Positions 20,824 through 31,984 of a stretch of 32,786 bases of DNA are shown here, piece after piece. The notes under the pieces were generated by a model. The model was not told the DNA's origin. It saw only the letters and a program-made list of their open reading frames with translations, and made no database searches. Position numbers and translations under genes: made by a program. Where the stretch lies: IMG/VR virus record IMGVR_UViG_3300020409_000753, positions 1 through 32,786 of that record. One strand, given 5' to 3'. The DNA comes from a virus. Taxonomy: Duplodnaviria; Caudoviricetes. The first letter of the stretch is position 1. Each line of letters begins with the position of its first letter.

Positions 20824-21306
20824 ATGGCAGATGAACAAACACAACTTTGGGTTTCTCGTTTAAGAGACGAAATTCAATCCCACGACAGATATAACGCAAG
20901 ACAAATTTTCTATATTGATGACGAAGGTAGAGACCGAGAAGTCAAAGAACATATGACCTATGGTGAATGGTTGAGAGAGTATGAGAGATTTAAAACCATT
21001 AAGGTGGAAGGTTTAGAAGAAACTAAATGGATAACGGAGTGTGTAGACGAAGTTGTACATAATATTACTGGAAAGAAAAGAAGTAATATACATTTATTTG
21101 TAAATCAAAAACCAGGTGTTAGTTTTAAATCACATAAAGACGACCTAGATGTTTACTTATATGTTGTAAAAGGCAAAAAGAAAGTAAATGTTGAAGGAGA
21201 AGATAAGATAGCATACGCTGATGAAGGTGTGTTTATCAAAGAAGGTCAATCTCATTATGTAGATAACGAAGCAGATACTTGGGGGTTAAGTATCGGAGTT
21301 GTCTAA
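20824..21306 (+). CDS. JmjC/cupin-type Fe(II) oxygenase
   Basis: SFKSHKDDLDVYLYVVKGKK (HxD) and distal His in GQSHYV; AGGAG RBS. Confidence 0.75.
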   Translation: MADEQTQLWVSRLRDEIQSHDRYNARQIFYIDDEGRDREVKEHMTYGEWLREYERFKTIKVEGLEETKWITECVDEVVHNITGKKRSNIHLFVNQKPGVSFKSHKDDLDVYLYVVKGKKKVNVEGEDKIAYADEGVFIKEGQSHYVDNEADTWGLSIGVV

Positions 21307-22340
21307 TGAATTGGATGTTTTATCTAAAAACAACCGAAACCTGTAATCTAAATTGTAAACATTGTTTCACTTCAGGCACAAATGGTCCTAAAGTTTATTG
21401 GAATACAAACAAGATTATAAATTGGTTTAAAAATTTCAGAAAATACAATTATCACAAAAACGATATCGCACATTTAGAGTTTCACGGCGGCGAACCTTTT
21501 TTAGTTCCTGTTTCTGAAATGCAATATGTGTATGACGCAACGAAAAATTTATGGGACCATCAATCATATGGGGTTACCACTAATCTAGTATTCAAATTAA
21601 AACAAGAACATATAGATTTTATGAAAGGTCCACTAGGAAATAGATGTGGAACTAGTTGGGATCCTAATATTCGTTTTGCAAATGAGAAACAATCTAACTT
21701 ATGGCGTAAAAATGTTGAAACATTGTTATCAGAAGGCATTACAATTAAACTTTTTATATCGGTAACCAAAGATACGGTTGATATTGAACCCATTGAATTG
21801 TTAAAATGGGTAAAAGATTTAGGTGTACAAGAAATGGCACTTGAAAGATTGACTGGAAACGGCAATGCTAACTTACATCCTGAAATTTTCCCAACAAATA
21901 TTGAACAAGACAAGTGGTTTTTAAAAATGCACGAACAATCAGAGCAATATGGTGCAAGAAAATGGTTTGATAATGAGTTTTTAGAAACAATTTACTCAAA
22001 ATTTAATTCAGGCAATACAAAACAAGGTACTTTTTGCCGAGATTGTGAACAAAAACTATTTACACTCAACGCAACAGGCACAATAGGTGGTTGTCCTAAT
22101 GCAAGTCCTGAGTTTAACTTCGGTTCTTTAGATGACCCTATGATAGACCTTATAAATAATCCTAAGAGATTAAATAATATTGCTTGCGAAGTAGCAAGAA
22201 ACCCAAAATGTTGGGAATGTGAAGTATTTAAATATTGTGGTGGCGATTGTCACCAACTAGGATGGCAAGGAGATGTATGTGGTGCCCCTAAATCTCTAAT
22301 GAAACAACTGGCACAAATGAAAAGTGAGGCGATATGGTAA
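21306..22340 (+). CDS. radical SAM/SPASM protein 1
   Basis: CNLNCKHC, FHGGEP, C-terminal CRDC...GCP...CWECEVFKYCGGDC...C. Start placed at the TAATG-coupled ATG 21306. Confidence 0.93.
   Translation: MNWMFYLKTTETCNLNCKHCFTSGTNGPKVYWNTNKIINWFKNFRKYNYHKNDIAHLEFHGGEPFLVPVSEMQYVYDATKNLWDHQSYGVTTNLVFKLKQEHIDFMKGPLGNRCGTSWDPNIRFANEKQSNLWRKNVETLLSEGITIKLFISVTKDTVDIEPIELLKWVKDLGVQEMALERLTGNGNANLHPEIFPTNIEQDKWFLKMHEQSEQYGARKWFDNEFLETIYSKFNSGNTKQGTFCRDCEQKLFTLNATGTIGGCPNASPEFNFGSLDDPMIDLINNPKRLNNIACEVARNPKCWECEVFKYCGGDCHQLGWQGDVCGAPKSLMKQLAQMKSEAIW
22151..22158 (+). promoter_or_regulatory. candidate internal late promoter TATAAATA
   Basis: Exact consensus inside rSAM1, 175 nt before the 257-aa gene; could be chance in AT-rich DNA. 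Confidence 0.4.
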
Positions 22341-23107
22341 ATTTAACGGATCCGATTAACGCTCAAAACATTGTAGACCGATTTAAAGAAGTGGTTACAG
22401 ATGTTGCCGATAAAGACATAGTTTGGGGAACAGATAATTTACCTGGACATAGTTCATTTTCGGCATCCGACTTTGGAGGAGTAGTTGATGGTATGCAATT
22501 GAACCTAGTTAATGCAACAGGTTCATATTCAACTGGTGAAACGGTTACAGGTTCTATTTCAGGAACCGTAGGTACCGTTGTTAGTTATTCAAACAATGTA
22601 TTAAAAGTAAGAAATGTAGTACCAGGTTCTGGACAAACTAATTTTGTTCAAAACGATATTATAACAGGTACTAATTCAGGTGCAACTGGTTCAGTATCTA
22701 CAATGACAGAAATATCAGCAGTTAGTATTGGTATTACTGGTAATAGTATTGGTAATTCAGGAACATTAATTCAAGCAAACTCAATTTATTCTGTTTTGAA
22801 AGATGAAATGAATAACTATACTAACATTAAGAGTACAAGAGCGTTTGTATCAATGACTGGTGCAGGTACTCAATATGACCAAACAGAAATTGCACATAAC
22901 ACAACAAGTCAAAGAGTAACCTTAAATCCATCACAACCTAGTAATTTACAATCAGGACAAACAATAAGTGAAAGTAATTTAGAAAACTTTTTAAGTTCTC
23001 TTGCTAGTGCTTATACAACTGAAAGAGCAAACACTTACACACTATCAAAAACAATTTGTCATAGTTCGTGCCACAGCTCGTGCCACGGCTCCAGAGGAAG
23101 AAGATAA
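22334..23107 (+). CDS. virion-like protein with C-terminal CHSS-repeat tail (candidate substrate of the rSAM cluster)
   Basis: S/T/G/N-rich body carrying the GETVTGxxSG module also seen in gp7, gp8 and VrlC; ends TICHSSCHSSCHGSRGRR, containing the only three Cys of the protein. Confidence 0.8.
   Translation: MVNLTDPINAQNIVDRFKEVVTDVADKDIVWGTDNLPGHSSFSASDFGGVVDGMQLNLVNATGSYSTGETVTGSISGTVGTVVSYSNNVLKVRNVVPGSGQTNFVQNDIITGTNSGATGSVSTMTEISAVSIGITGNSIGNSGTLIQANSIYSVLKDEMNNYTNIKSTRAFVSMTGAGTQYDQTEIAHNTTSQRVTLNPSQPSNLQSGQTISESNLENFLSSLASAYTTERANTYTLSKTICHSSCHSSCHGSRGRR
23057..23092 (+). repeat. 12-bp tandem repeat x3 encoding CHSS-CHSS-CHGS
   Basis: TGTCATAGTTCG TGCCACAGCTCG TGCCACGGCTCC. Confidence 0.85.
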
Positions 23108-23799
23108 TGATTGAAACAATAGTACCAATTGAATTAAAAAATTTAAAAAAATATTTTGAAGATAAATCTGAAAGTTATATAATAGATTATGAAAAGAGTA
23201 AACTAAAAGGTGCTCAGTTTCTAACTTATTTAAGTAATTTAGATGTACCTTGCGACCTATCTAATTATGATAATGAATTACTAAAAGAATATTTTGAAAG
23301 TTCTATGTTAGTAAATATACCATTATTAGAAAAGGCTGCTATGATTGTTTTATTTGAACACAAAGGCCTTGTAAAAGAAATTAAAAATGCAAAATTTATA
23401 TCTGAAAATTTAGAGACCATTGACAAATGGGCAAGTAAACTTGAAAGTTTACCATTATATAATATGTCAATTGTAGGAGAAGGTGCATTTAAAGAATTTG
23501 TTGAAGCATATCCTACAGATGAAACAAAAGATACTAGAGGTATTAATTTTGTCAGTTTATTAAAACACAAAGATTTTTATTTTTATTATAATAAACCACA
23601 AGAGAATATTGTTAGAAACTATACTAAATACTTTAAAGAATATATGTTTAAAGGTAAATGTCTATTAGACTTTTGGGGTGTTAAAGAAAACCCTATGTTT
23701 CTAATGACTTGGGCAATTGCCGAAGGTAAATTTGATAGTAAAAAATACAAAGAAGCAAGAACAAAAGATTTAGAGGTACTAAATGCTACACCTGTTTAA
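23107..23799 (+). CDS. hypothetical protein of the rSAM cluster
   Basis: Start placed at the coupled ATG 23107 (MIETIVPI...) after AGAGGA; no recognisable motif. Confidence 0.8.
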   Translation: MIETIVPIELKNLKKYFEDKSESYIIDYEKSKLKGAQFLTYLSNLDVPCDLSNYDNELLKEYFESSMLVNIPLLEKAAMIVLFEHKGLVKEIKNAKFISENLETIDKWASKLESLPLYNMSIVGEGAFKEFVEAYPTDETKDTRGINFVSLLKHKDFYFYYNKPQENIVRNYTKYFKEYMFKGKCLLDFWGVKENPMFLMTWAIAEGKFDSKKYKEARTKDLEVLNATPV

Positions 23800-24895
23800 T
23801 AAAGTTTATATGACTTTTGACGACAATATTGATTGTCATACTAACAGATATGTTATATCTGCTGAAAAAGGCAATGAAATGCTACAAGAGTTGCAAACAA
23901 CTTATCGTGGTACATTACTTAATTACTCTCATAGTGTTAACGCTATGAAGACAAAGTTTAATGGTATGACAGGTTTCTTTAATGATGTAAGATTAAAGAG
24001 CAATCAATTAGGTAAAATTATGATATATTGTGATAGTCAAGCATTTTTAGAGTTGGTAACTATATGGTTAAAAACAATGTTGCCATTTGCTGACGAAGAC
24101 GCAATACAAAAATACATAGACATTTATTTACACCACGAAAGAATTATTGCAAATACACAATTGCAACCTACACACACTTTAGATTTGACAACATTAAATT
24201 CAGGTCTAGGAGATGTTAAAGGATATTTTAGAGTACAAGCTGCTTTAGATATAGAAGAAATTAAATCTTGGGATTTAGATTTATCAATAGAATTATTATT
24301 AGGTGAATATTTTGCAGGTGCTGATACACACGAAGAAAAATTACTTGCAACATATTTAAAATTTTTAAAGAGATTTTATAAAGAGTATTTTACAGACGCC
24401 AGAGAAGGTGCAGCTCTTAATCTGTTAAATACAACACAACAAACTAATTTAGGTTATACTGCTGATGATGTAAACTTAAATGCTGATAATGTGTTTGAAG
24501 GTATTACACCTTTAGCACCTTTTGCTGATAGTGAAGTATTTGTAGCAAAACCTACTGCAAATAATGGCGCAAACAATGTAATGAATATAGATAATTTGTC
24601 AAGTGAAAAACAAACTGCACTAAAAGATTTAGTCAAACAATTACACGACTTTGAAGGACAAGTTGACCCCGATACTTTTATGAACCATTTAGACAAAGCA
24701 GTAAAGACAACTCTTTCTAAATCAGAATTTGATACAATGATTACCGAGACGGTGAATAGTCCATCTAGTCTATCGTACATACCAAGATTTGATATTGGTA
24801 ATATAAACTATTCTTTTATACAATATCTTTTCTCACTTAAAAAAGATAACGATACAGACACCTTAGGAAAATACAGACTATTCGCAAACTCGTAG
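23783..24895 (+). CDS. hypothetical protein of the rSAM cluster
   Basis: 370 aa, GAGG RBS, overlaps the upstream stop; no clear family. Confidence 0.8.
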   Translation: MLHLFNKVYMTFDDNIDCHTNRYVISAEKGNEMLQELQTTYRGTLLNYSHSVNAMKTKFNGMTGFFNDVRLKSNQLGKIMIYCDSQAFLELVTIWLKTMLPFADEDAIQKYIDIYLHHERIIANTQLQPTHTLDLTTLNSGLGDVKGYFRVQAALDIEEIKSWDLDLSIELLLGEYFAGADTHEEKLLATYLKFLKRFYKEYFTDAREGAALNLLNTTQQTNLGYTADDVNLNADNVFEGITPLAPFADSEVFVAKPTANNGANNVMNIDNLSSEKQTALKDLVKQLHDFEGQVDPDTFMNHLDKAVKTTLSKSEFDTMITETVNSPSSLSYIPRFDIGNINYSFIQYLFSLKKDNDTDTLGKYRLFANS

Positions 24896-24903
24896 GAGTT
24901 TAA

Positions 24904-25956
24904 ATGCGTGAGTTTTTAATAGATCCCAAAAGAGACCCAGAGCAAGAGTATACAATTCATTTATTTGAATTTTGTAATTTGCGTTGTGCTTTCTGTTGGC
25001 AAAACCACGAAGATACTATTGGTACTGAAAATGTGATGGATAAACTTCCATCAGTAGAAAAATTTATCTCTAAAGAATTAATGCAAAAAGTTACCTTTAA
25101 TGTTATGGGTGGCGAAGTCTTTGCACCTGCAATCTACACAAAGAAATTAAACGAGGGTTATAAGTTATTTGCAAAAGGTATAAAGAAGATATGCGACCAC
25201 TATAATAAAGGTTGTGTAATTAATTGGGTATCTAATTTAGTAACCACACCTCAAGGTAATGAACAAATAAGAGATTTAATAAATTGGTCTAGGTCAGAAG
25301 GCATAGAAACTAGATTAACAACTAGTTATGACCCACGAGGTAGATTTAATAAAAAAGACTTTGAGATATTTAAATCAAATGTAGAATATTGGGGAGATGA
25401 AGTTACCTGTTTCTCTTGTCTGCTTACAAAACCTAATATAAAATTTTATTTAGAAGAAGGCGATGAGTACTTTGATTATTTGTATAATCAAGGTAAGTAC
25501 ATATATTTTGATTATTATATGCCAGATGAAAACGCAAAGTATCAAATGCCTAGTGATGAATTATTATTAAAGTTTTTTAAACATTGTGTTGACAAATATC
25601 CTAATGTTCATCCTGTAAGAGATTGGATTTTCAATAAGAAAAACTTTGCAAGTTGTAGAGTATCAAAACTTATATTAGCAGATGGTACTTTATGTCAATG
25701 TGGTAACCTTGTACAAGACGAAAAATCATTAAGTCAATATAAATCACCAATTAAAAGAAGAGACAATAGCATAATAGAAAATAGTTTTTTAGAAAAATAC
25801 AATTGTGCTAGTTGTGAGTTTTTAGATAGATGTACACTAGGTTGTTTTATGAACCACGATTATAGATATAAGGAGGAACTCAATGAGTGTGTTTACAAAC
25901 TTACGCACAGATATATTGAAGATGTACGAGTACAAAGAAATTATATCGCAACTTGA
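24904..25956 (+). CDS. radical SAM/SPASM-like protein 2
   Basis: CNLRCAFC, MGGEV, C-terminal CASCEFLDRCTLGC...C; AGGAG RBS. Confidence 0.9.
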   Translation: MREFLIDPKRDPEQEYTIHLFEFCNLRCAFCWQNHEDTIGTENVMDKLPSVEKFISKELMQKVTFNVMGGEVFAPAIYTKKLNEGYKLFAKGIKKICDHYNKGCVINWVSNLVTTPQGNEQIRDLINWSRSEGIETRLTTSYDPRGRFNKKDFEIFKSNVEYWGDEVTCFSCLLTKPNIKFYLEEGDEYFDYLYNQGKYIYFDYYMPDENAKYQMPSDELLLKFFKHCVDKYPNVHPVRDWIFNKKNFASCRVSKLILADGTLCQCGNLVQDEKSLSQYKSPIKRRDNSIIENSFLEKYNCASCEFLDRCTLGCFMNHDYRYKEELNECVYKLTHRYIEDVRVQRNYIAT

Positions 25957-26497
25957 TATAAAAGTACCTAGTCATATAGAAGTACAACTAGATAACTTGC
26001 CATTAGATAAACCTTATATGCCTAGAATAGATAGTAGACAAGCACATATGTTTCTATGGTTAGGTAAAAAAGAAGATGACATTGAAACTTATAATCTAGC
26101 AGAAAATTGTAAAAGTGAAATAATGTGGGTAGATAATAAAACACCTAACACTTATATTAAAGGTGTAGGTATGTTTCATATCTATGATGACTATGTTGTA
26201 GTTGGTTCATTAAAATATGCAGGTTATTTACAAAGAAAAACACCAGCAGATAGAAGACACTTATTAAGAACAATGTGGTGTGAGACAATAAATATATTTA
26301 AAGACAAAGATATAATGTGTCCATCAGGAACATTTTTTAATTGGGTACACTTATCTTTAAATCAAATGACCGTACAAAAAGAGCCTTATCATAGAGAGAT
26401 AATGCAACAATTTGGTTTTAAACGAGACGAAGATTACTGGATAAGAGATAAAAAAAGTAAGACTGGTTTAGATTGGATAAAACTATATGGAAATTAA
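25883..26497 (+). CDS. hypothetical protein (start uncertain: 25883 or 25922)
   Basis: Open frame between rSAM2 and the oxygenase, overlapping both. Confidence 0.7.
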   Translation: MSVFTNLRTDILKMYEYKEIISQLDIKVPSHIEVQLDNLPLDKPYMPRIDSRQAHMFLWLGKKEDDIETYNLAENCKSEIMWVDNKTPNTYIKGVGMFHIYDDYVVVGSLKYAGYLQRKTPADRRHLLRTMWCETINIFKDKDIMCPSGTFFNWVHLSLNQMTVQKEPYHREIMQQFGFKRDEDYWIRDKKSKTGLDWIKLYGN

Positions 26498-27065
26498 ATT
26501 TTTAAATACAATAAGCATAATTGATGACTTTATTTCAGATAAAGAATTAATTGATTGGTTAAAAGATGAGAGTAAAATAGATAGTACCGTAAAAGGACAA
26601 GATACTCATAATCTTACTTATGCTCAAAATGAATTTGGTAAACTTGCAAACGCAACACTAGTAAATTATTGTAATTCAAATAATATAGATTATAATAATT
26701 TGTCAATGTCTAATTTTCAAAAAGGTAGATTGAAGAAATATGATAAGTCTATGGTGACTAATCATTTATACGAACCACACCACGACCAAGTTGAAGGTGC
26801 TTATATTTCTGCAATCTATTATATTGATAGTGATTATACACCTGACAAATGGGTAGGTGGTGAGTTAAGTATATACAAAAATTTAACCTTTGCTGAATAT
26901 CCTAACAATGTTGTAAATATTAATCCTGTTCCTAACAGACTTATAATGTTTCCAGGTTTTCTAGTACATAGAGTTAAACCATACTTTGGAGAAAATCCTA
27001 GAACATCTTTGGTATTAGGTTGGGAAGTAAAAGACCAACCACAAACAGAACCTATATGGATTTAA
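26487..27065 (+). CDS. 2OG-Fe(II) oxygenase (prolyl-hydroxylase-like)
   Basis: PHHD (HxD), GGEL, PNRLIMFPG..VHRV, terminal RTSL. Confidence 0.9.
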   Translation: MEIKFLNTISIIDDFISDKELIDWLKDESKIDSTVKGQDTHNLTYAQNEFGKLANATLVNYCNSNNIDYNNLSMSNFQKGRLKKYDKSMVTNHLYEPHHDQVEGAYISAIYYIDSDYTPDKWVGGELSIYKNLTFAEYPNNVVNINPVPNRLIMFPGFLVHRVKPYFGENPRTSLVLGWEVKDQPQTEPIWI

Positions 27066-27072
27066 TAATTAT

Positions 27073-28140
27073 ATGAAAGAAGATAATATAAAAAAATTAA
27101 TTGATTTTTCGTTAGAAATAACTCAAGGATGTCAATTCAATTGCACAGGTTGTACCATAGATAAAGTACATAACGATTATCCATCTGATAATCAGTTTGA
27201 AAAAATAATGTCTTTAGTAGATGACCTTAAAGAAAATGAATTTAAACCTATGAATATACAAATAGGTCCTACAGATGTAATGACAGCTTCAAATATGGAT
27301 AAAGTCTTAACCGATGAAAGAGTTAAAAAATTAACAAAGAAATTTTTAAAGACGGCAATAAATTGTGCCTTTTTAAAACCTTTTGATGAAGACTATGTAA
27401 AGTTTGGTAAAAAACTTAATTGGTTATTAGAAGGTGGTCTTGTTAAATTTATAATACCATTTGAAGCTTACCATATAGACAATAAAGAATATTTAAACAG
27501 AATTAGAAATCGTATTAAAATAACTTTAGATAATATGCCAGATGTAGTACATACAAAAACTTATTTGATTATGAATTACGAGGCTACATCTATATATGAC
27601 CGTGAAGAAAAGAAAAATTTAACTGAAAAACTAATATTAAAAACACACGAATCCGATTTACTAGAAGGTTTTGATGTAGGGTTTAATTTAGCACACTCTC
27701 TTTTAGATTTACGAAAACCTGAAAATGCAAAAAAATTATATGATTCCGTAGTAAATCTTAAAAATTATTTTGTAAATGCTAAAAGAAAATATGATGATAG
27801 AATTGATGTATATGATATAATGCCACACGAAGGAACAGATTGGGATATTTTTTATAAGTCAGGTAAATTATATTTGACGCCATTTTTATTTGAAGCCGTA
27901 ACCAGTTTTGATAAAGAATTTGAAGTTAATAAAGATTGGTCTTTTGAAGGCTTACACGAAGCATATACAGAAAGTTTTATAAATCAAGTAGATTGGGCTC
28001 ATAAAAATAAAGATTGTAAAGATTGTCAATTTGTACCTATGTGTGCTGAACGAGGTGTACACTCTCTAATGAAATTAATGAACACAACTAATTGTATAAG
28101 TCCTCTTAAATCACTTGAAGATAAAGTAATGTGGAGATAA
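27073..28140 (+). CDS. divergent radical SAM-like protein 3
   Basis: CQFNCTGC near the N-terminus and CKDCQFVPMC...C at the C-terminus; GGEP replaced by IGPTD. Confidence 0.75.
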   Translation: MKEDNIKKLIDFSLEITQGCQFNCTGCTIDKVHNDYPSDNQFEKIMSLVDDLKENEFKPMNIQIGPTDVMTASNMDKVLTDERVKKLTKKFLKTAINCAFLKPFDEDYVKFGKKLNWLLEGGLVKFIIPFEAYHIDNKEYLNRIRNRIKITLDNMPDVVHTKTYLIMNYEATSIYDREEKKNLTEKLILKTHESDLLEGFDVGFNLAHSLLDLRKPENAKKLYDSVVNLKNYFVNAKRKYDDRIDVYDIMPHEGTDWDIFYKSGKLYLTPFLFEAVTSFDKEFEVNKDWSFEGLHEAYTESFINQVDWAHKNKDCKDCQFVPMCAERGVHSLMKLMNTTNCISPLKSLEDKVMWR

Positions 28141-28141
28141 A

Positions 28142-29248
28142 ATGGATCTTATTATTAAACCTACTGAATTGTGTAATTTCAAATGTACTTTTTGTTCAAG
28201 TACACAATTAACTAATGAAAAGAAAAACTGGTTAAAACACGACCAGATATTTCGTTTTTTAGAAAGGTTTCCTGAAACTAAAACTATTATAGTAAATGGT
28301 GGTGACCCATTGATGATGGAACCTAATTACTATTGGAAGATTATTGAGTGGTTAGATAATAAAGGTTATGATACTTCACTTGCACTTACAACAAACTTAT
28401 GGCCTTTCTATAAGAAACCTAAACTATGGGTTGACTTATTTAATAATGATAGAGTTGGTATTACAACTTCTTTTCAATATGGTGGTGGTAGATTAAAAGG
28501 AGACTATACAGAATTTACAGAAGAAGACTTTTGGAAATGTTCAGACGCAATGTTAGAATATTGTGGTTATAGACCTGATTTTATATCAGTTATTACAGAA
28601 GAAAATGTACACAACGCTGTCAAAAATGTTAAGTTAGCAAAACATATGTCAGAAAATAAAATACCTCAAGGTGTTTTACATAATTTCTGGAGAGAAGAAA
28701 AGACAGGTGTTGAGTGTAAATTAAACTATGCAATGGCAAGTGGTGAACAAAAAAATCCATTTTTATTGTCTGACATATATAAAATATATGTTGATATCTG
28801 GCGTATGGGACTTGCACCTTGGGAGTTCAATACAAAACAAATGATGACAACAATAAAAACTGAACATACAACTTGTCCTTTAAGTAGAAAATGTGATGAA
28901 GGTATTAGATGTTTACAACCAGATGGAGACTATTATAGTTGTGGTGCTTTTGGTGATGATAAAGATAAACCAATAGATTTTGAAAGAGAAATGCAAGGCG
29001 AATTTTTTACACCTTTACAAGATAGTTTAGAATTAACAACAATGAAAAGAGGTTGTTATGGTTGTCCTATGTTTAGTATATGTAATGGTTGTAGAAAGAC
29101 AATAAAAGATTATAAAGAAGCAGGTGTCGTAGAAGCACATTGTCAAAAGATGAAAAAGAATGGTGTAGATATTTTAAATGCAAATGGTTTACATTATATT
29201 GAAATGACACCTTACGAAAATGAAAAAATAAAAGAAGTAAGACTATGA
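28142..29248 (+). CDS. radical SAM/SPASM protein 4
   Basis: IIKPTELCNFKCTFC, NGGDPL, CPLSRKC...YSCG...CYGCPMFSICNGC...HC. Confidence 0.92.
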   Translation: MDLIIKPTELCNFKCTFCSSTQLTNEKKNWLKHDQIFRFLERFPETKTIIVNGGDPLMMEPNYYWKIIEWLDNKGYDTSLALTTNLWPFYKKPKLWVDLFNNDRVGITTSFQYGGGRLKGDYTEFTEEDFWKCSDAMLEYCGYRPDFISVITEENVHNAVKNVKLAKHMSENKIPQGVLHNFWREEKTGVECKLNYAMASGEQKNPFLLSDIYKIYVDIWRMGLAPWEFNTKQMMTTIKTEHTTCPLSRKCDEGIRCLQPDGDYYSCGAFGDDKDKPIDFEREMQGEFFTPLQDSLELTTMKRGCYGCPMFSICNGCRKTIKDYKEAGVVEAHCQKMKKNGVDILNANGLHYIEMTPYENEKIKEVRL

Positions 29249-29763
29249 TAAAAGGTATTGAAAATGTAATAATAAATGGCGTATTCGCATTTAAGGATCC
29301 TATTGCATTTAGATTTTTTGAAGGTGTTGAAATACCTTTTAAAGAACAAGGAGAATATAAAGTTTGTATTCATACAAAAGAAGTAGACAACGCACTTAAA
29401 ATAACCCATAGTTATTTGGGCGATAAATATATTAAAATGCTATCAGGTAAATACAATTTATATGGTCAACCTGAAATAGTTAATGGTGTTGATAGTGGAT
29501 CAACAAATTGGCATAATGATTTAAAAGAAGGTGCCAATCTTGCTATAATGATGTATTTTACAAATGCTAATAGTATAGAACAAGGTGGTTCATTATCAGT
29601 TAGAAATAAAGAAACTAACGAATTGTCTTGTATGTTGCACCCAGGTAAAGGTGATATGATTATTTTAAATCATAAAGAGACTTGGCAACATAAAGTAGGA
29701 GAATGGAAAAATATACCTGGTAAAGAAGAAAGAATAGTTGGCTGTTTTGATTTTAATATATAA
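29245..29763 (+). CDS. 2OG-Fe(II) oxygenase
   Basis: WHND (HxD), GGSL, WQHKV, ERIV; ATGA overlap with rSAM4. Confidence 0.82.
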   Translation: MIKGIENVIINGVFAFKDPIAFRFFEGVEIPFKEQGEYKVCIHTKEVDNALKITHSYLGDKYIKMLSGKYNLYGQPEIVNGVDSGSTNWHNDLKEGANLAIMMYFTNANSIEQGGSLSVRNKETNELSCMLHPGKGDMIILNHKETWQHKVGEWKNIPGKEERIVGCFDFNI

Positions 29764-29783
29764 GATTTTTGAGGAACTAAAAT

Positions 29784-30785
29784 ATGACATTACCGAAAAT
29801 TAATTTATCAATTAATCCGTCTTATCATTGTAATTTTAGATGTAATTGGTGTTATCTAACACCTAAACAATTAGGTGATACAAAGACAATAGACCATATC
29901 AAATTAAACGATATACTTGCACACATACAAACTTATAGAGATATAAACCATATTGATTTATATGGTGGTGAGATAGGTATATTAAAGAAAGACAAATTAG
30001 AGGCAATTACTAATACTATCAGATTTTATTATAAAGACAAGATTAACATAAACACTAATTTATCTACAATGAATCCTATGTTTTTTAATCCTGATTATTA
30101 TTTAAGTGTTAGTTATGATTTTAGCGCAAGACAAGACCATAGAAAAGTATTTGACAATATGACAAAGTTACCTGTTGACTTTTCTGTTCTTGTATTAGCA
30201 AATGAGCCAGTATTAAGAAATGTAGGTGCTGCTCACTTCTGGGATCAATTTAGAAAACTAAAACATATGAATAAAAGATTTAAAAGTGTTGAAGTAAAAC
30301 CTTATAGTAAAAATCAGGCAAACCAACACACAATTACAGACGCACAATTTGAAGATTACATATTAGAGTTATGTGCTGTATATCCTAGTCTTATGACAAA
30401 ATATGATACTGGTGATAGAATTAAAGATTTTACTTTTACTAATGAATTAAATATATTAGATAGTTTAGATAAAAGTTATAACGCATATTCAGACGACCAC
30501 TTATATATTACACCTGCAGGAGAATTAGCAGTATTAGATTTTGATAAAAATAATAATGAGTATTTTAGAAAAGTAGATAATTTTGATGATTATATAAAGT
30601 GGACAGAAAAAGAAAAACAGAAGATAGATAAATCTCCTGTATGTAGAAAATGTGAGTATAAAGGTTTTTGTTTAACTGAACATTATAGATTTGTAGAAAA
30701 TTTAGATAATGGTTGTAATGGTTACAAATACTTGTTAGATACTTACAGATTTAGATATGGTAAAGAAAAGTTAATTAATGTCTAA
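29784..30785 (+). CDS. radical SAM protein 5
   Basis: INPSYHCNFRCNWC, LYGGEI, C-terminal CRKCEYKGFCLTEH...GCNG; GAGGA RBS. Confidence 0.9.
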   Translation: MTLPKINLSINPSYHCNFRCNWCYLTPKQLGDTKTIDHIKLNDILAHIQTYRDINHIDLYGGEIGILKKDKLEAITNTIRFYYKDKININTNLSTMNPMFFNPDYYLSVSYDFSARQDHRKVFDNMTKLPVDFSVLVLANEPVLRNVGAAHFWDQFRKLKHMNKRFKSVEVKPYSKNQANQHTITDAQFEDYILELCAVYPSLMTKYDTGDRIKDFTFTNELNILDSLDKSYNAYSDDHLYITPAGELAVLDFDKNNNEYFRKVDNFDDYIKWTEKEKQKIDKSPVCRKCEYKGFCLTEHYRFVENLDNGCNGYKYLLDTYRFRYGKEKLINV

Positions 30786-31572
30786 TAGAGTATTTTGTAT
30801 AGGTAATGGTAGAAGTAGACGAGGGTTTAATCTGAAGTCTATAAAAGGTAGAGGTGTTATAATAGGTTGTAATAATCTCTATAAAGATTTTGCACCTGAT
30901 ATATTAGTTGCAACTAACCATCCTATTATGCACGAAATATATAGAAGTGGTTATTGTTATACTGCAAATTGTTATTTTAGAGATTGGGTAACCGTACCTG
31001 TACAAAAGTTTGATAATATGATACAAGGTATGTTTCCTGAACATAGAAATATAAAGACTATAAGACGAGACGGACTATTAATAGAAAATCAAAGACAAGG
31101 TTCTAAAGAATTTGTCATACACGGATATAAAGACAAACAAACCAATCAAACAGAAGTGTCATTAAGTTGGTGTACAGAAGATAAAGTAAAAAACTTATCA
31201 GACATTTATAGAGAACACGAACAAGTTGATTGGGGTACAGGAACAACAAGTGGTTATGTTGCGTGTAAAGAAATATCAGAATTAAAAGAAGTGTATCTCA
31301 TAGGACACGACTTCTTTAGCATAGACAAACAATTTAACAACATTTATAGAGGTCAAAAATTCTACGAAAATGATACTCATATTTCAGATTACAATATTAA
31401 TAAATGGATATATGAGTGGCGAAGACTATTTAAATGGTATAACTGGATTAAGTTTTACAAAGTAAATAGAGAGAATTATTTAAATTTAAGATTAAACGCT
31501 TGGAACGATTGCAAAAATGTGGAGTATATAAGTTATGAAAGAATGGAAACTCAAACAAGAAGTATACCATAG
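30778..31572 (+). CDS. Maf/DUF115-like or sialyltransferase-like Rossmann protein
   Basis: VFCIGNGRSR, IGCNNLY.DF.PDILV, GTGTTSG, VYLIGHDF motifs typical of that superfamily. Confidence 0.6.
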   Translation: MSNRVFCIGNGRSRRGFNLKSIKGRGVIIGCNNLYKDFAPDILVATNHPIMHEIYRSGYCYTANCYFRDWVTVPVQKFDNMIQGMFPEHRNIKTIRRDGLLIENQRQGSKEFVIHGYKDKQTNQTEVSLSWCTEDKVKNLSDIYREHEQVDWGTGTTSGYVACKEISELKEVYLIGHDFFSIDKQFNNIYRGQKFYENDTHISDYNINKWIYEWRRLFKWYNWIKFYKVNRENYLNLRLNAWNDCKNVEYISYERMETQTRSIP

Positions 31573-31984
31573 ATTAAACACTACTCATAAAGATACTCTA
31601 GTTGACAAAGAGATATCTTTGATATGGGAAGAGAAAGATATTGTAGATTGGGCAATACGACATTGGAATGAAAAAGTTGACAGATTTGTATACCCAGCAA
31701 AGAGTTATTGTGTAGCGATATGTTATGCAAAATGGATTGAGAGAGATTATGGTGACAACTTTTATGAGTTGTTAAACGACCCAATGTTATTATATAATAA
31801 TGACGATTACTTTGAGGTATATGATAAAGTACCACACATATATGACAAGATAATATCAGCATACCCTAATGATGAAAATAGAGGTATGATACCAGATATT
31901 CGTGGATATTATGAAAAAGAAATAAAGTACGATACTGGAATTAATATAAATAATACTATAACAGGAGAAAATTATGGCAATTAA
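31535..31984 (+). CDS. hypothetical protein
   Basis: 149 aa, GGAG upstream; YPAKSYCVAICYAKWI motif; overlaps both neighbours. Confidence 0.75.
   Translation: MKEWKLKQEVYHRLNTTHKDTLVDKEISLIWEEKDIVDWAIRHWNEKVDRFVYPAKSYCVAICYAKWIERDYGDNFYELLNDPMLLYNNDDYFEVYDKVPHIYDKIISAYPNDENRGMIPDIRGYYEKEIKYDTGININNTITGENYGN
31945..31952 (+). promoter_or_regulatory. T4-type late promoter TATAAATA
   Basis: Exact consensus upstream of the AGGAG RBS of the ORF at 31974. Confidence 0.75.

Follow-up and report, generated by a model that had tools for sequence, protein, structure and literature searches.

The 32,786-nucleotide IMG/VR virus record IMGVR_UViG_3300020409_000753, which we analyzed as a whole and refer to as the window, carries beside a tail-fibre-like gene a block of 14 genes rich in radical S-adenosylmethionine (SAM) enzymes and iron-dependent oxygenases. 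Sequence comparisons make it probable that a core of these genes (the kit) is a set of maturases, akin to those of peptides made by ribosomes and modified after translation (RiPPs), which introduces cross-links and hydroxyl groups into the tail of a baseplate or fibre protein that is optional and serves in host contact. The substrate is in all likelihood the 257-amino-acid (aa) protein encoded among the enzymes, here called CH. Since a CH homolog occurs in phage particles and the enzymes are encoded beside CH, they likely rebuild its tail chemically; that this tail takes a direct part in adsorption is a more tentative assignment. The system is real, widespread and apparently undescribed.

A conserved tail at the C-terminus of CH

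The tail of the window protein is ICHSSCHSSCHGSRGRR, followed by the stop codon, and over 124 distinct proteins it conforms to the pattern C-H-x-S-C-H-x-(S/N)-C-H-x-S-R-(G/S)-R-R. Serine occupies the three H-x-S positions in 112, 99 and 110 of these proteins, with asparagine as the chief alternative, and CH proteins hold few cysteines outside the tail. In viral loci collected by searching for the motif (motif-first loci), it finishes exactly at the stop codon in all 116 open reading frames (ORFs) that bear it. Its serines are encoded by both TCN and AGY codons (144 distinct DNA tails), which indicates selection on the residue and, together with the fixed position at the stop codon, shows that the tail did not arise by chance. 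An earlier note on this DNA, made from the sequence alone, had pointed out a Cys/His/Ser repeat tail in this protein, and it is now defined as (C-H-x-S)3-R-G-R-R. Searches with a CH profile found 815 representatives at E ≤0.001; among the best 150 of these, the tail was strict in 139, loose in 6 and variant or truncated in 5. Some variants drop a cysteine yet keep H-S-N, which suggests that histidine is the more constant target.

CH homologs are mostly 120-310 aa long, within a range of about 120-400 aa. The AlphaFold 2 model of window CH is confident (mean predicted local distance difference test score 91), except for the last 17 residues. After removal of the tail, the body is homologous to gp170 of the soil jumbo phage Atu_ph07 (E 2e-8). 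A β-barrel inserted into window CH, which most homologs lack in the alignment, has a KP1 baseplate protein as top PDB match (Z 7.5, root mean square deviation 2.2, 70 aligned residues) and also matches cyanophage structural proteins in BFVD; its sequence motif recurs in the gp7 and DUF4815 proteins of the window. In some homologs (L042, P0280), a Gly-rich fibre-type domain interrupts CH or is fused to it. Only the insert was matched in the fold search, and the absence of a match to the CH core does not prove a new fold. CH had no Pfam match, and a hydropathy scan of 21 homologs gave no sign of a signal peptide (peak N-terminal 11-residue hydropathy 1.5). Among the 25 of 27 families listed for 62 CH homologs at E ≤1, the only matches to precursor models were weak ones to FibroRumin, in 5 of the 62.

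Linkage of CH and the enzymes in phages

IMG/VR contains 193 stretches that encode a relative of rS1, the first radical SAM enzyme of the block, and 80 of them were taken into the analysis (rS1-first loci). Among loci L001-L084 (84), 51 span the block from rS1 to its last gene, u149, and were selected for the presence of rS1, rS4, rS5 and u149. A core of eight genes (cupin, rS1, CH, u230, rS2, rS4, rS5, u149) is complete in all 51, including cupin, CH, u230 and rS2, which played no part in the selection. The other genes range from common (OG2, u370 and the fibre gene) to accessory (Table 1). Five radical SAM enzymes and three oxygenases had previously been read as one pathway; what survives as the core comprises four of the former and the cupin-like oxygenase, while rS3 and OG1 are accessory, as are u204 and u264.

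A scan of viral sequences for the tail motif, which covered 25 of 64 parts, gave at least 122 loci. The motif lies in an ORF in 116 of them and is cut by the locus edge in one, the remaining five being chance matches. In all 75 long loci with such an ORF, a radical SAM enzyme of the cluster is encoded within 6 kb. In the reverse direction, the full tail is present in 67 of the 80 rS1-first loci; of the other 13, five stop within ~350 nt of rS1 and eight are rearranged. We searched five rearranged contigs and found two tail copies further along in four, the fifth being truncated. Homologous clusters thus retain the gene with the tail, as the earlier note had anticipated, and the linkage holds in both directions. 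In the rearranged form (L076-L081, L084, L085, L111, L119 and others), two short CH genes (~127 aa) and a group of rS3 paralogs, which number four or five and occur in multiple copies among L076-L084, lie apart from a cupin-rS1-rS4-rS5-u149 block. In L075 (2146-9110), seven near-tandem pantoate-ligase-like genes (one ligase scanned) and a dehydrogenase gene are found immediately upstream of rS1 and CH.

In 50,697 phage records, rS1 and rS4 each match the same 15, which belong to the jumbo phages Phosso, Atu_ph07, DT01 and the RSL2/RSF1/FLC/S13 group, and all 12 matches to CH, obtained with a shorter homolog as query, fall among these 15; tblastn with window CH itself against isolate phages found none. 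The four jumbo phages we inspected begin the block with cupin, rS1 and CH, continue with genes that include u230, rS2, rS4 and rS5, and carry the same tail motif. The gene for u149 ends the block in three of them and lies farther off, on the opposite strand, in Atu_ph07. Hence the core, at times minus one gene, occurs in the otherwise unrelated phages Atu_ph07, Phosso, RSL2 and DT01. Metatranscriptome contigs from three studies overlap parts of the cluster; they can neither show transcription nor rank the genes and were not used as evidence.

CH in phage particles

The published virion proteome of Atu_ph07 contains gp170, with 8 peptides and 35% coverage (PMC6102473 Table S5). The fibre homolog gp176 is listed as well, and the neighbouring gp163-169, 171 and 172, which are the enzymes, are not listed (PMC6102473). 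This supports, as far as location is concerned, the earlier proposal of a virion component as the modified substrate, and we consider it highly likely that CH resides in the virion, probably as a part of the baseplate or of the fibre apparatus. The 32-kDa gp170 was found in gel bands 1-9 and was most abundant in band 1, the top band (PMC6102473). Among the 39 Atu_ph07 proteins of 25-40 kDa with at least two peptides, only gp170 and gp321 peak in this band, which otherwise holds proteins of 76-139 kDa. The particles were purified with polyethylene glycol and the loading buffer, as written, contained no reductant (PMC6102473); band 1 is therefore indicative of a stable high-mass form and not proof of its chemistry.

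A further connection to structural genes is the motif TATAAATA, which we take to be a T4 late promoter and which is located upstream of CH inside rS1. Five other exact copies in the window stand just 5' of gp25, gp9, gp8, a 75-aa gene and the last open gene. Of 110 distinct regions upstream of CH, 66 contain the motif, about half of these hits falling on a single homologous position in rS1. Before the enzymes, it was found in 0 of 79 (rS4), 0 of 64 (rS5), 0 of 74 (rS3), 2 of 96 (rS1) and 11 of 88 (rS2) regions.

The presence in particles bears on the possibility that the tail is a RiPP core which, once modified, is cleaved from a leader-like body to work as a small peptide, either within the infected cell or upon its neighbours, in anti-defence or superinfection exclusion. 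An invariant short core behind a variable N-terminal region is the customary pattern of precursors; moreover, the lowest model confidence falls in the tail, and the CH duplicates of several loci look like multiple precursors. However, the body of CH folds confidently and bears baseplate or fibre domains, gp170 occurs in particles with substantial coverage and at a high apparent mass, and the core genes include neither a protease nor a transporter, all of which makes this reading of the tail unlikely.

We see even less reason to expect that CH is packaged and delivered to the periplasm or cell on infection, its modified, basic tail binding DNA or countering an envelope defence in the manner of HxsA. 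The HxS repeats of HxsA are described as binding DNA and blocking phage entry (PMC13128918), and the tail of CH consists of three HxS units plus RGRR. Yet its gene lies in a baseplate/fibre block, away from those of internal head proteins, its inserted domains are of baseplate or fibre type, and the copies in Bdellovibrionota, discussed below, have fibre genes as neighbours.

Radical SAM enzymes and oxygenases

All five radical SAM proteins (rS1-rS5) contain the CxxxCxxC motif and match the Radical_SAM model weakly, with rS4 alone passing the Pfam cut-off. In rS1, rS2, rS4 and rS5, this motif is accompanied by GG(E/D), which is GGE in rS1; the family alignment of rS3 has no conserved GG(E/D), and rS3 may be degenerate. 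Conserved C-terminal cysteines number eight in rS1, seven each in rS4 and rS2, and four each in rS5 and rS3, according to the family alignments. The claim that all five enzymes carry SPASM-like Cys clusters therefore holds in full for rS1, rS2 and rS4 only, whereas that of five CxxxCxxC proteins is correct. The SPASM model TIGR04085 is passed by rS1 (29.9 against a cut-off of 27) and matched below the cut-off by rS2 and rS4. With the exception of this domain model, all enzymes of the block score below the cut-offs of the named NCBIfam families; the best match of rS1 is PapB, with 42 bits against a cut-off of 340.

In profile searches against PDB sequences, rS1 and rS4 matched anSME over their full length (E 2e-9 and 4e-8), the sole match of rS2 was 5WGG, which we take to be CteB, and the best match of rS5 was YydG, covering the N-terminal part only. 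Scores for small-molecule families were far under the cut-offs: MoaA ≤33 against 284, viperin ≤34 against 180, NrdG2 ≤20 against 131 and QueE ≤20 against 260. The MoaA and NrdG-type matches span little beyond the N-terminal part, to which the PADLOC pVip matches are also confined. The enzymes thus do not group with QueE, NrdG or MoaA types, consistent with the earlier view of them as maturases. rS4 is 52-62% identical to its counterparts in isolate jumbo phages and 50-60% to the best Bdellovibrionota matches; plasmids gave no match at E 1e-20.

The three HxD...H oxygenases proposed from the sequence could be located residue by residue in alignments: H104-D106-H144 in the cupin, H98-D100-H161 in OG1 and H90-D92-H149 in OG2. 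The cupin gene matches Cupin_2, and 33 of 37 family members match JmjC_2 (PF08007). Its longest PDB profile match is MINA (E 5e-5), a histidyl hydroxylase according to the PDB title, with generic cupins scoring higher. With the ribosomal oxygenases MINA, NO66 and YcfD (JmjC_2) it shares the HxD...H JmjC-like fold; unlike them, it is a minimal domain of 130-200 aa. It is a candidate His or Arg hydroxylase.

These results also allow us to judge whether the enzymes instead produce a metallocofactor or other small molecule, to be bound by, or ligated to, a Cys/His tail that stays unmodified. The CxxxCH units overlap and look like sites for heme or a metal, and the three cysteines and three histidines of the tail would suit metal ligation; rS4 weakly matches the heme b synthase and NirJ models, and the window has Fe-S carrier genes. 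We nevertheless hold this to be very unlikely, as the matches to heme b synthase and NirJ lie far under cut-off and cover just the N-terminal part, those over full length are to protein maturases, the core contains no precursor-supply or ligase genes, and metal binding alone would leave the conserved serine and arginine unexplained.

Among the remaining core genes, u230 is present in all 51 full-span loci and yields a confident structure model. A fold search with this model found no match (best Z 4.1), which does not prove a new fold, the model did not match PqqD, and an ESM Atlas search was uninformative (0.77). We regard u230 as a candidate for recognizing the substrate or for serving as a scaffold. 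When profiles of u230, u370 and u149 were compared with PDB sequences, all matches had E >0.1, and u370 and u149 matched neither a family nor a PDB entry; an ESM Atlas lead to ADP-ribosyltransferases for u149 (103 shared features) was probably due to chance and was rejected.

Two variations concern the enzyme genes. L005, whose rS1 is 94% identical to that of the window, has no rS3 between u204 and OG2. A relative's contig (run X1), compared with window positions 27095-29220, joins the end of OG1 to the start of OG2 and skips rS3 and rS4, an arrangement that resembles the gene order of L005. Many phage and bacterial copies, though not the window, have an additional B12-binding radical SAM protein of 550-610 aa (for example L024 15026-16777 and L257 11841-13682), a candidate methyltransferase.

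Comparison with known systems

The His-Xaa-Ser (HXS) system resembles the kit in that radical SAM/SPASM enzymes are encoded together with a folded protein bearing His-Xaa-Ser repeats and basic residues; its HxS repeats are matured by radical SAM enzymes, and a +8 Da change maps to SHRSS (PMC13128918). HXS (HxsA-D) is described there as serving bacteria in defence; it comprises two enzymes and HxsD, and its repeats are N-proximal and accompanied by a signal peptide and a peptidoglycan-binding domain. The CH kit, in contrast, has four core enzymes plus an oxygenase, a cysteine ahead of each HxS, C-terminal repeats, a different body, no signal peptide, and phages and predatory bacteria as carriers. 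The tail of CH does contain three H-x-S repeats. The cut-offs for HxsB and HxsC (TIGR03978 and TIGR03977) were missed by rS1 (32.2 against 370) and by rS4 (32.0 against 267.9, N-terminal only), no unknown gene nor CH matched the NCBIfam models of HxsD (TIGR03976) or HxsA, and neither HxsA nor HxsD is among the 25 families listed, of 27 matched by 62 CH homologs at E ≤1. A Pfam search found no peptidoglycan-binding domain in CH. Judged by sequence, the kit would work like HXS; it is not a member, since it does not pass the HxsA-D models and has neither the signal peptide nor the peptidoglycan-binding domain.

Ranthipeptide and sactipeptide systems (PapB, SCIFF/CteB, CXXX-repeat TIGR04119) share with the kit a cysteine every four residues, SPASM enzymes and, in PapB, the best NCBIfam match of rS1. 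They differ in that CH is a folded protein of 120-400 aa rather than a short peptide, several enzymes serve one substrate and scores remain far below cut-off; by these features, the kit is not a ranthipeptide cluster. Hidden Markov models and the u230 fold model gave no match to a RiPP recognition element (RRE). Among solved structures, rS1 and rS4 have a single full-length relative, anSME (4K37), a distant one (E 1e-9 to 1e-8), which acts on a Cys or Ser in a full-size protein; unlike anSME, the kit has no sulfatase substrate.

The kit's components have surfaced in print before. Cupin, radical SAM and 2-oxoglutarate (2OG) oxygenase genes appear in the papers on FLC6 and S13, in passages that give no function (PMC8066314, PMC11898562), and for 332-Vera the presence of eight radical SAM genes within one structural cluster is called highly unusual (PMC12390700). 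We liken 332-Vera and a Tara T4-like genome to the kit by their gene lists only, the passages naming no substrate, motif or mechanism. The term 'radical SAM' is absent from an overview of jumbo phages (PMC7824862). In the open literature, outside of which lie subscription papers, including the original RSL2/RSF1 proteomics, and bioRxiv supplements, we found neither a description of the motif or system nor any virion protein matured by virus-encoded radical SAM enzymes.

Bacterial carriers

The system had been described as phage-encoded. Phages do carry it; it is not confined to them, since Bdellovibrionota chromosomes carry it too. A motif scan of GTDB, covering 39 of 64 parts, gave at least 120 loci, of which 103 were set aside for lack of a terminal in-frame motif. 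Twelve of the remaining 17 are titled Bdellovibrionota (11 genomes), two lie amid phage virion genes and the last three are not long enough for a judgement. The Bdellovibrionota copies neighbour nrdR, nusB or ATP-binding cassette transporter genes. In a search of 301 Bdellovibrionota genomes, rS4 was found in 11, and the strict motif in nine, all of them among these 11. The other two have variant tails near rS4 (L356 9561-10169, L355 13293-13607), with altered Cys spacing and a retained His-Ser-Asn and RxRR end.

Of the 11 regions around rS4, some of which duplicate DNA from the GTDB scan, eight encode a small protein weakly similar to the phage fibre chaperone domain and seven contain prepilin-like/S74-chaperone fibre genes. 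The kit thus usually adjoins fibre genes in both phages and Bdellovibrionota, and the latter likely apply it to pilin-anchored fibres for contact with prey. Genes that fuse a prepilin-type N-terminus to an S74 chaperone domain were seen in L240, L286, L292, L348, L350, L354, L356 and L357, next to genes for a small twin-arginine-like protein and a conserved 'WND.ADF' protein. Homology of the latter to the phage fibre chaperone domain is no more than suggestive: the two align with an hhalign probability of 78% (E 2e-5), in a register that differs from the HMMER one. In a quick rS4 tree, 41 of 44 phage rows form a single clade (97), with Bdellovibrionota outside; because of long branches and a distant root, we make no claim on the direction of transfer.

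Genomic setting

The window (~32% G+C) is a 32.8-kb record of a marine T4-like phage with a T4-like baseplate operon: PAAR, gp25, gp6, a gp7-like wedge protein, gp9/10, gp8 and a 2037-aa DUF4815 protein. By gp8, its closest cultured relatives are the Pelagibacter phages Mosig (62.6%) and HTVC008M (51.8%), which makes a SAR11-type host plausible. Neither phage has a match to rS1 or rS4, and CH is also absent from the Mosig stretch we examined (29708-41237). The flanking fibre gene is shared by this stretch, whose slot is filled by another set of enzyme genes: epimerase, carbamoyltransferase, aminotransferase, methyltransferase, three MoaA-like proteins and nitroreductases. The slot behaves as a variable island for particle decoration, in which the kit is optional.

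That the enzymes act on some other target (the fibre protein, a glycan, DNA or a host protein), with CH a mere neighbour, would suit a variable enzyme island with the unrelated cassette in Mosig and a fibre-chaperone gene that travels with the kit, but it is highly improbable given that no CH was found without the enzymes, that CH is missing from enzyme loci solely where the contig is short or truncated, that the linkage outlasts rearrangement and transfer among phage families and bacteria, and that RSL2 and DT01 retain CH in the absence of the fibre gene.

A possible maturation pathway

In the pathway we favour, CH would be produced late and its exposed tail offered to the enzymes by u230, u149 and u370. 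The SPASM enzymes would then cross-link each C-H-x-S unit by His-Ser bonds and/or Cys thioethers, inside one chain or from chain to chain, or introduce an HXS-like change; the cupin would hydroxylate His or Arg, and lineage-specific oxygenases, rS3 copies or the B12 radical SAM protein would add further tailoring. The particle would in the end bear a stiff, basic knob, rich in His, that touches the host envelope.

Several observations weigh against this pathway. Matches of the enzymes to named maturases are all weak (≤42 bits), and hidden Markov models detected no PqqD/RRE domain in the window proteins. The motif-first and rS1-first loci overlap and share kinship, so that their counts are not independent events, and the promoter hits at the shared rS1 position may reflect a single inheritance. 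The gp170 in band 1 may be due to disulfides or an oligomer resistant to sodium dodecyl sulfate, rather than to enzyme-made cross-links, and Table S5 of PMC6102473 does not say whether tail peptides are among those of gp170. The absence of the kit from the closest cultured relatives shows that it is dispensable for T4-like assembly. Finally, CH of Bdellovibrionota has no signal peptide that would account for a route to a surface fibre.

If maturation of the CH tail is correct, RiPP-type chemistry is present on phage particles, and a 16-residue C-terminal tag can be acted on by enzymes of four SPASM families, so far uncharacterised, and by a minimal His/Arg hydroxylase. A purpose would also emerge for the radical SAM and Fe-S assembly genes that marine T4-like and jumbo phages carry without explanation. 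It is directly testable, as cultured phages carry the kit and a published proteome already includes the substrate. More speculatively, phages and predatory bacteria might have in common a radical SAM pathway that covalently stitches the Cys-His-Ser tails of a surface protein, perhaps across subunits, so as to form a polycyclic tip that binds metal or the envelope and is used to attack Gram-negative cells, a RiPP-like warhead in the particle and the attacker's counterpart of HXS defence chemistry.

The gene block and its neighbours

Using the longest ORFs, the junctions within the block range from -74 to +20 nt, in agreement with the earlier description of 14 co-oriented, nearly overlapping genes next to a tail-fibre gene (Table 1).

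Table 1. Features of the window, with their occurrence in full-span loci where counted
Feature	Position	Strand	Remarks
Fibre-like protein, 432 aa	19514..20812	+	usual upstream neighbour (46/51 loci); C-terminal YADLAE domain
14-gene block	20824..31984	+	all ORFs on this strand
Cupin/JmjC-like Fe oxygenase (HxD...H)	20824..21306	+	core; candidate His or Arg hydroxylase
rS1, radical SAM/SPASM enzyme	21306..22340	+	core
TATAAATA, candidate T4-type late promoter for CH	22151..22158	+	inside rS1
CH protein, 257 aa	22334..23107	+	core; putative substrate and virion component
Inserted β-barrel of CH, residues 52-128	22487..22717	+	T4-like baseplate type
CH tail, (C-H-x-S)3-R-G-R-R-stop	23057..23107	+	putative modification site
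u230, helical protein	23107..23799	+	core; mostly immediately 3' of CH
u370	23783..24895	+	near-core; 46/51 loci
rS2, radical SAM/SPASM enzyme	24904..25956	+	core
u204	25883..26497	+	accessory; 22/51 loci; no Pfam match
OG1, 2OG-Fe(II) oxygenase	26487..27065	+	accessory; PF13640 over cut-off; 13/51 loci
rS3, divergent radical SAM protein	27073..28140	+	accessory; 4/51 loci
rS4, radical SAM/SPASM enzyme	28142..29248	+	core; most conserved gene
OG2, 2OG-Fe(II) oxygenase	29245..29763	+	common accessory; PF13640; family in 48/51 loci
rS5, radical SAM enzyme	29784..30785	+	core; reduced C-terminal Cys set
u264	30778..31572	+	passenger of a large metagenomic family; 13/51 loci
u149, YPAKSY motif	31535..31984	+	core; found in phages and Bdellovibrionota

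The 432-aa fibre-like protein on one side of the block has a PHROG tail fibre match and profile matches to 28lx (E 0.0045), 28nb, 3gqh and 6qz9, and its YADLAE domain resembles the autocleaving D4 chaperone of phi29 gp12 and Dpo31. On the other side, where further structural genes had been proposed, there are two small genes, one of which matches a PHROG tail-fibre assembly family. The label of u264 as Maf/glycosyltransferase-like was not confirmed, with no Pfam match up to E 1; one of its 661 homologs is named as from a Pelagibacter phage.

Elsewhere in the window, an A-type Fe-S carrier (PF01521; 1289-1612, + strand) and a NifU-like protein (PF01106; 2749-3045, + strand) are encoded on either side of a 2OG oxygenase gene (1926-2708, + strand). 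As predicted from these families, the two proteins would help to supply the radical SAM enzymes with Fe-S clusters. A marine T4-like genome has an A-type carrier plus 12 radical SAM genes, a co-occurrence remarked on by Nishimura et al. (PMC5332604).

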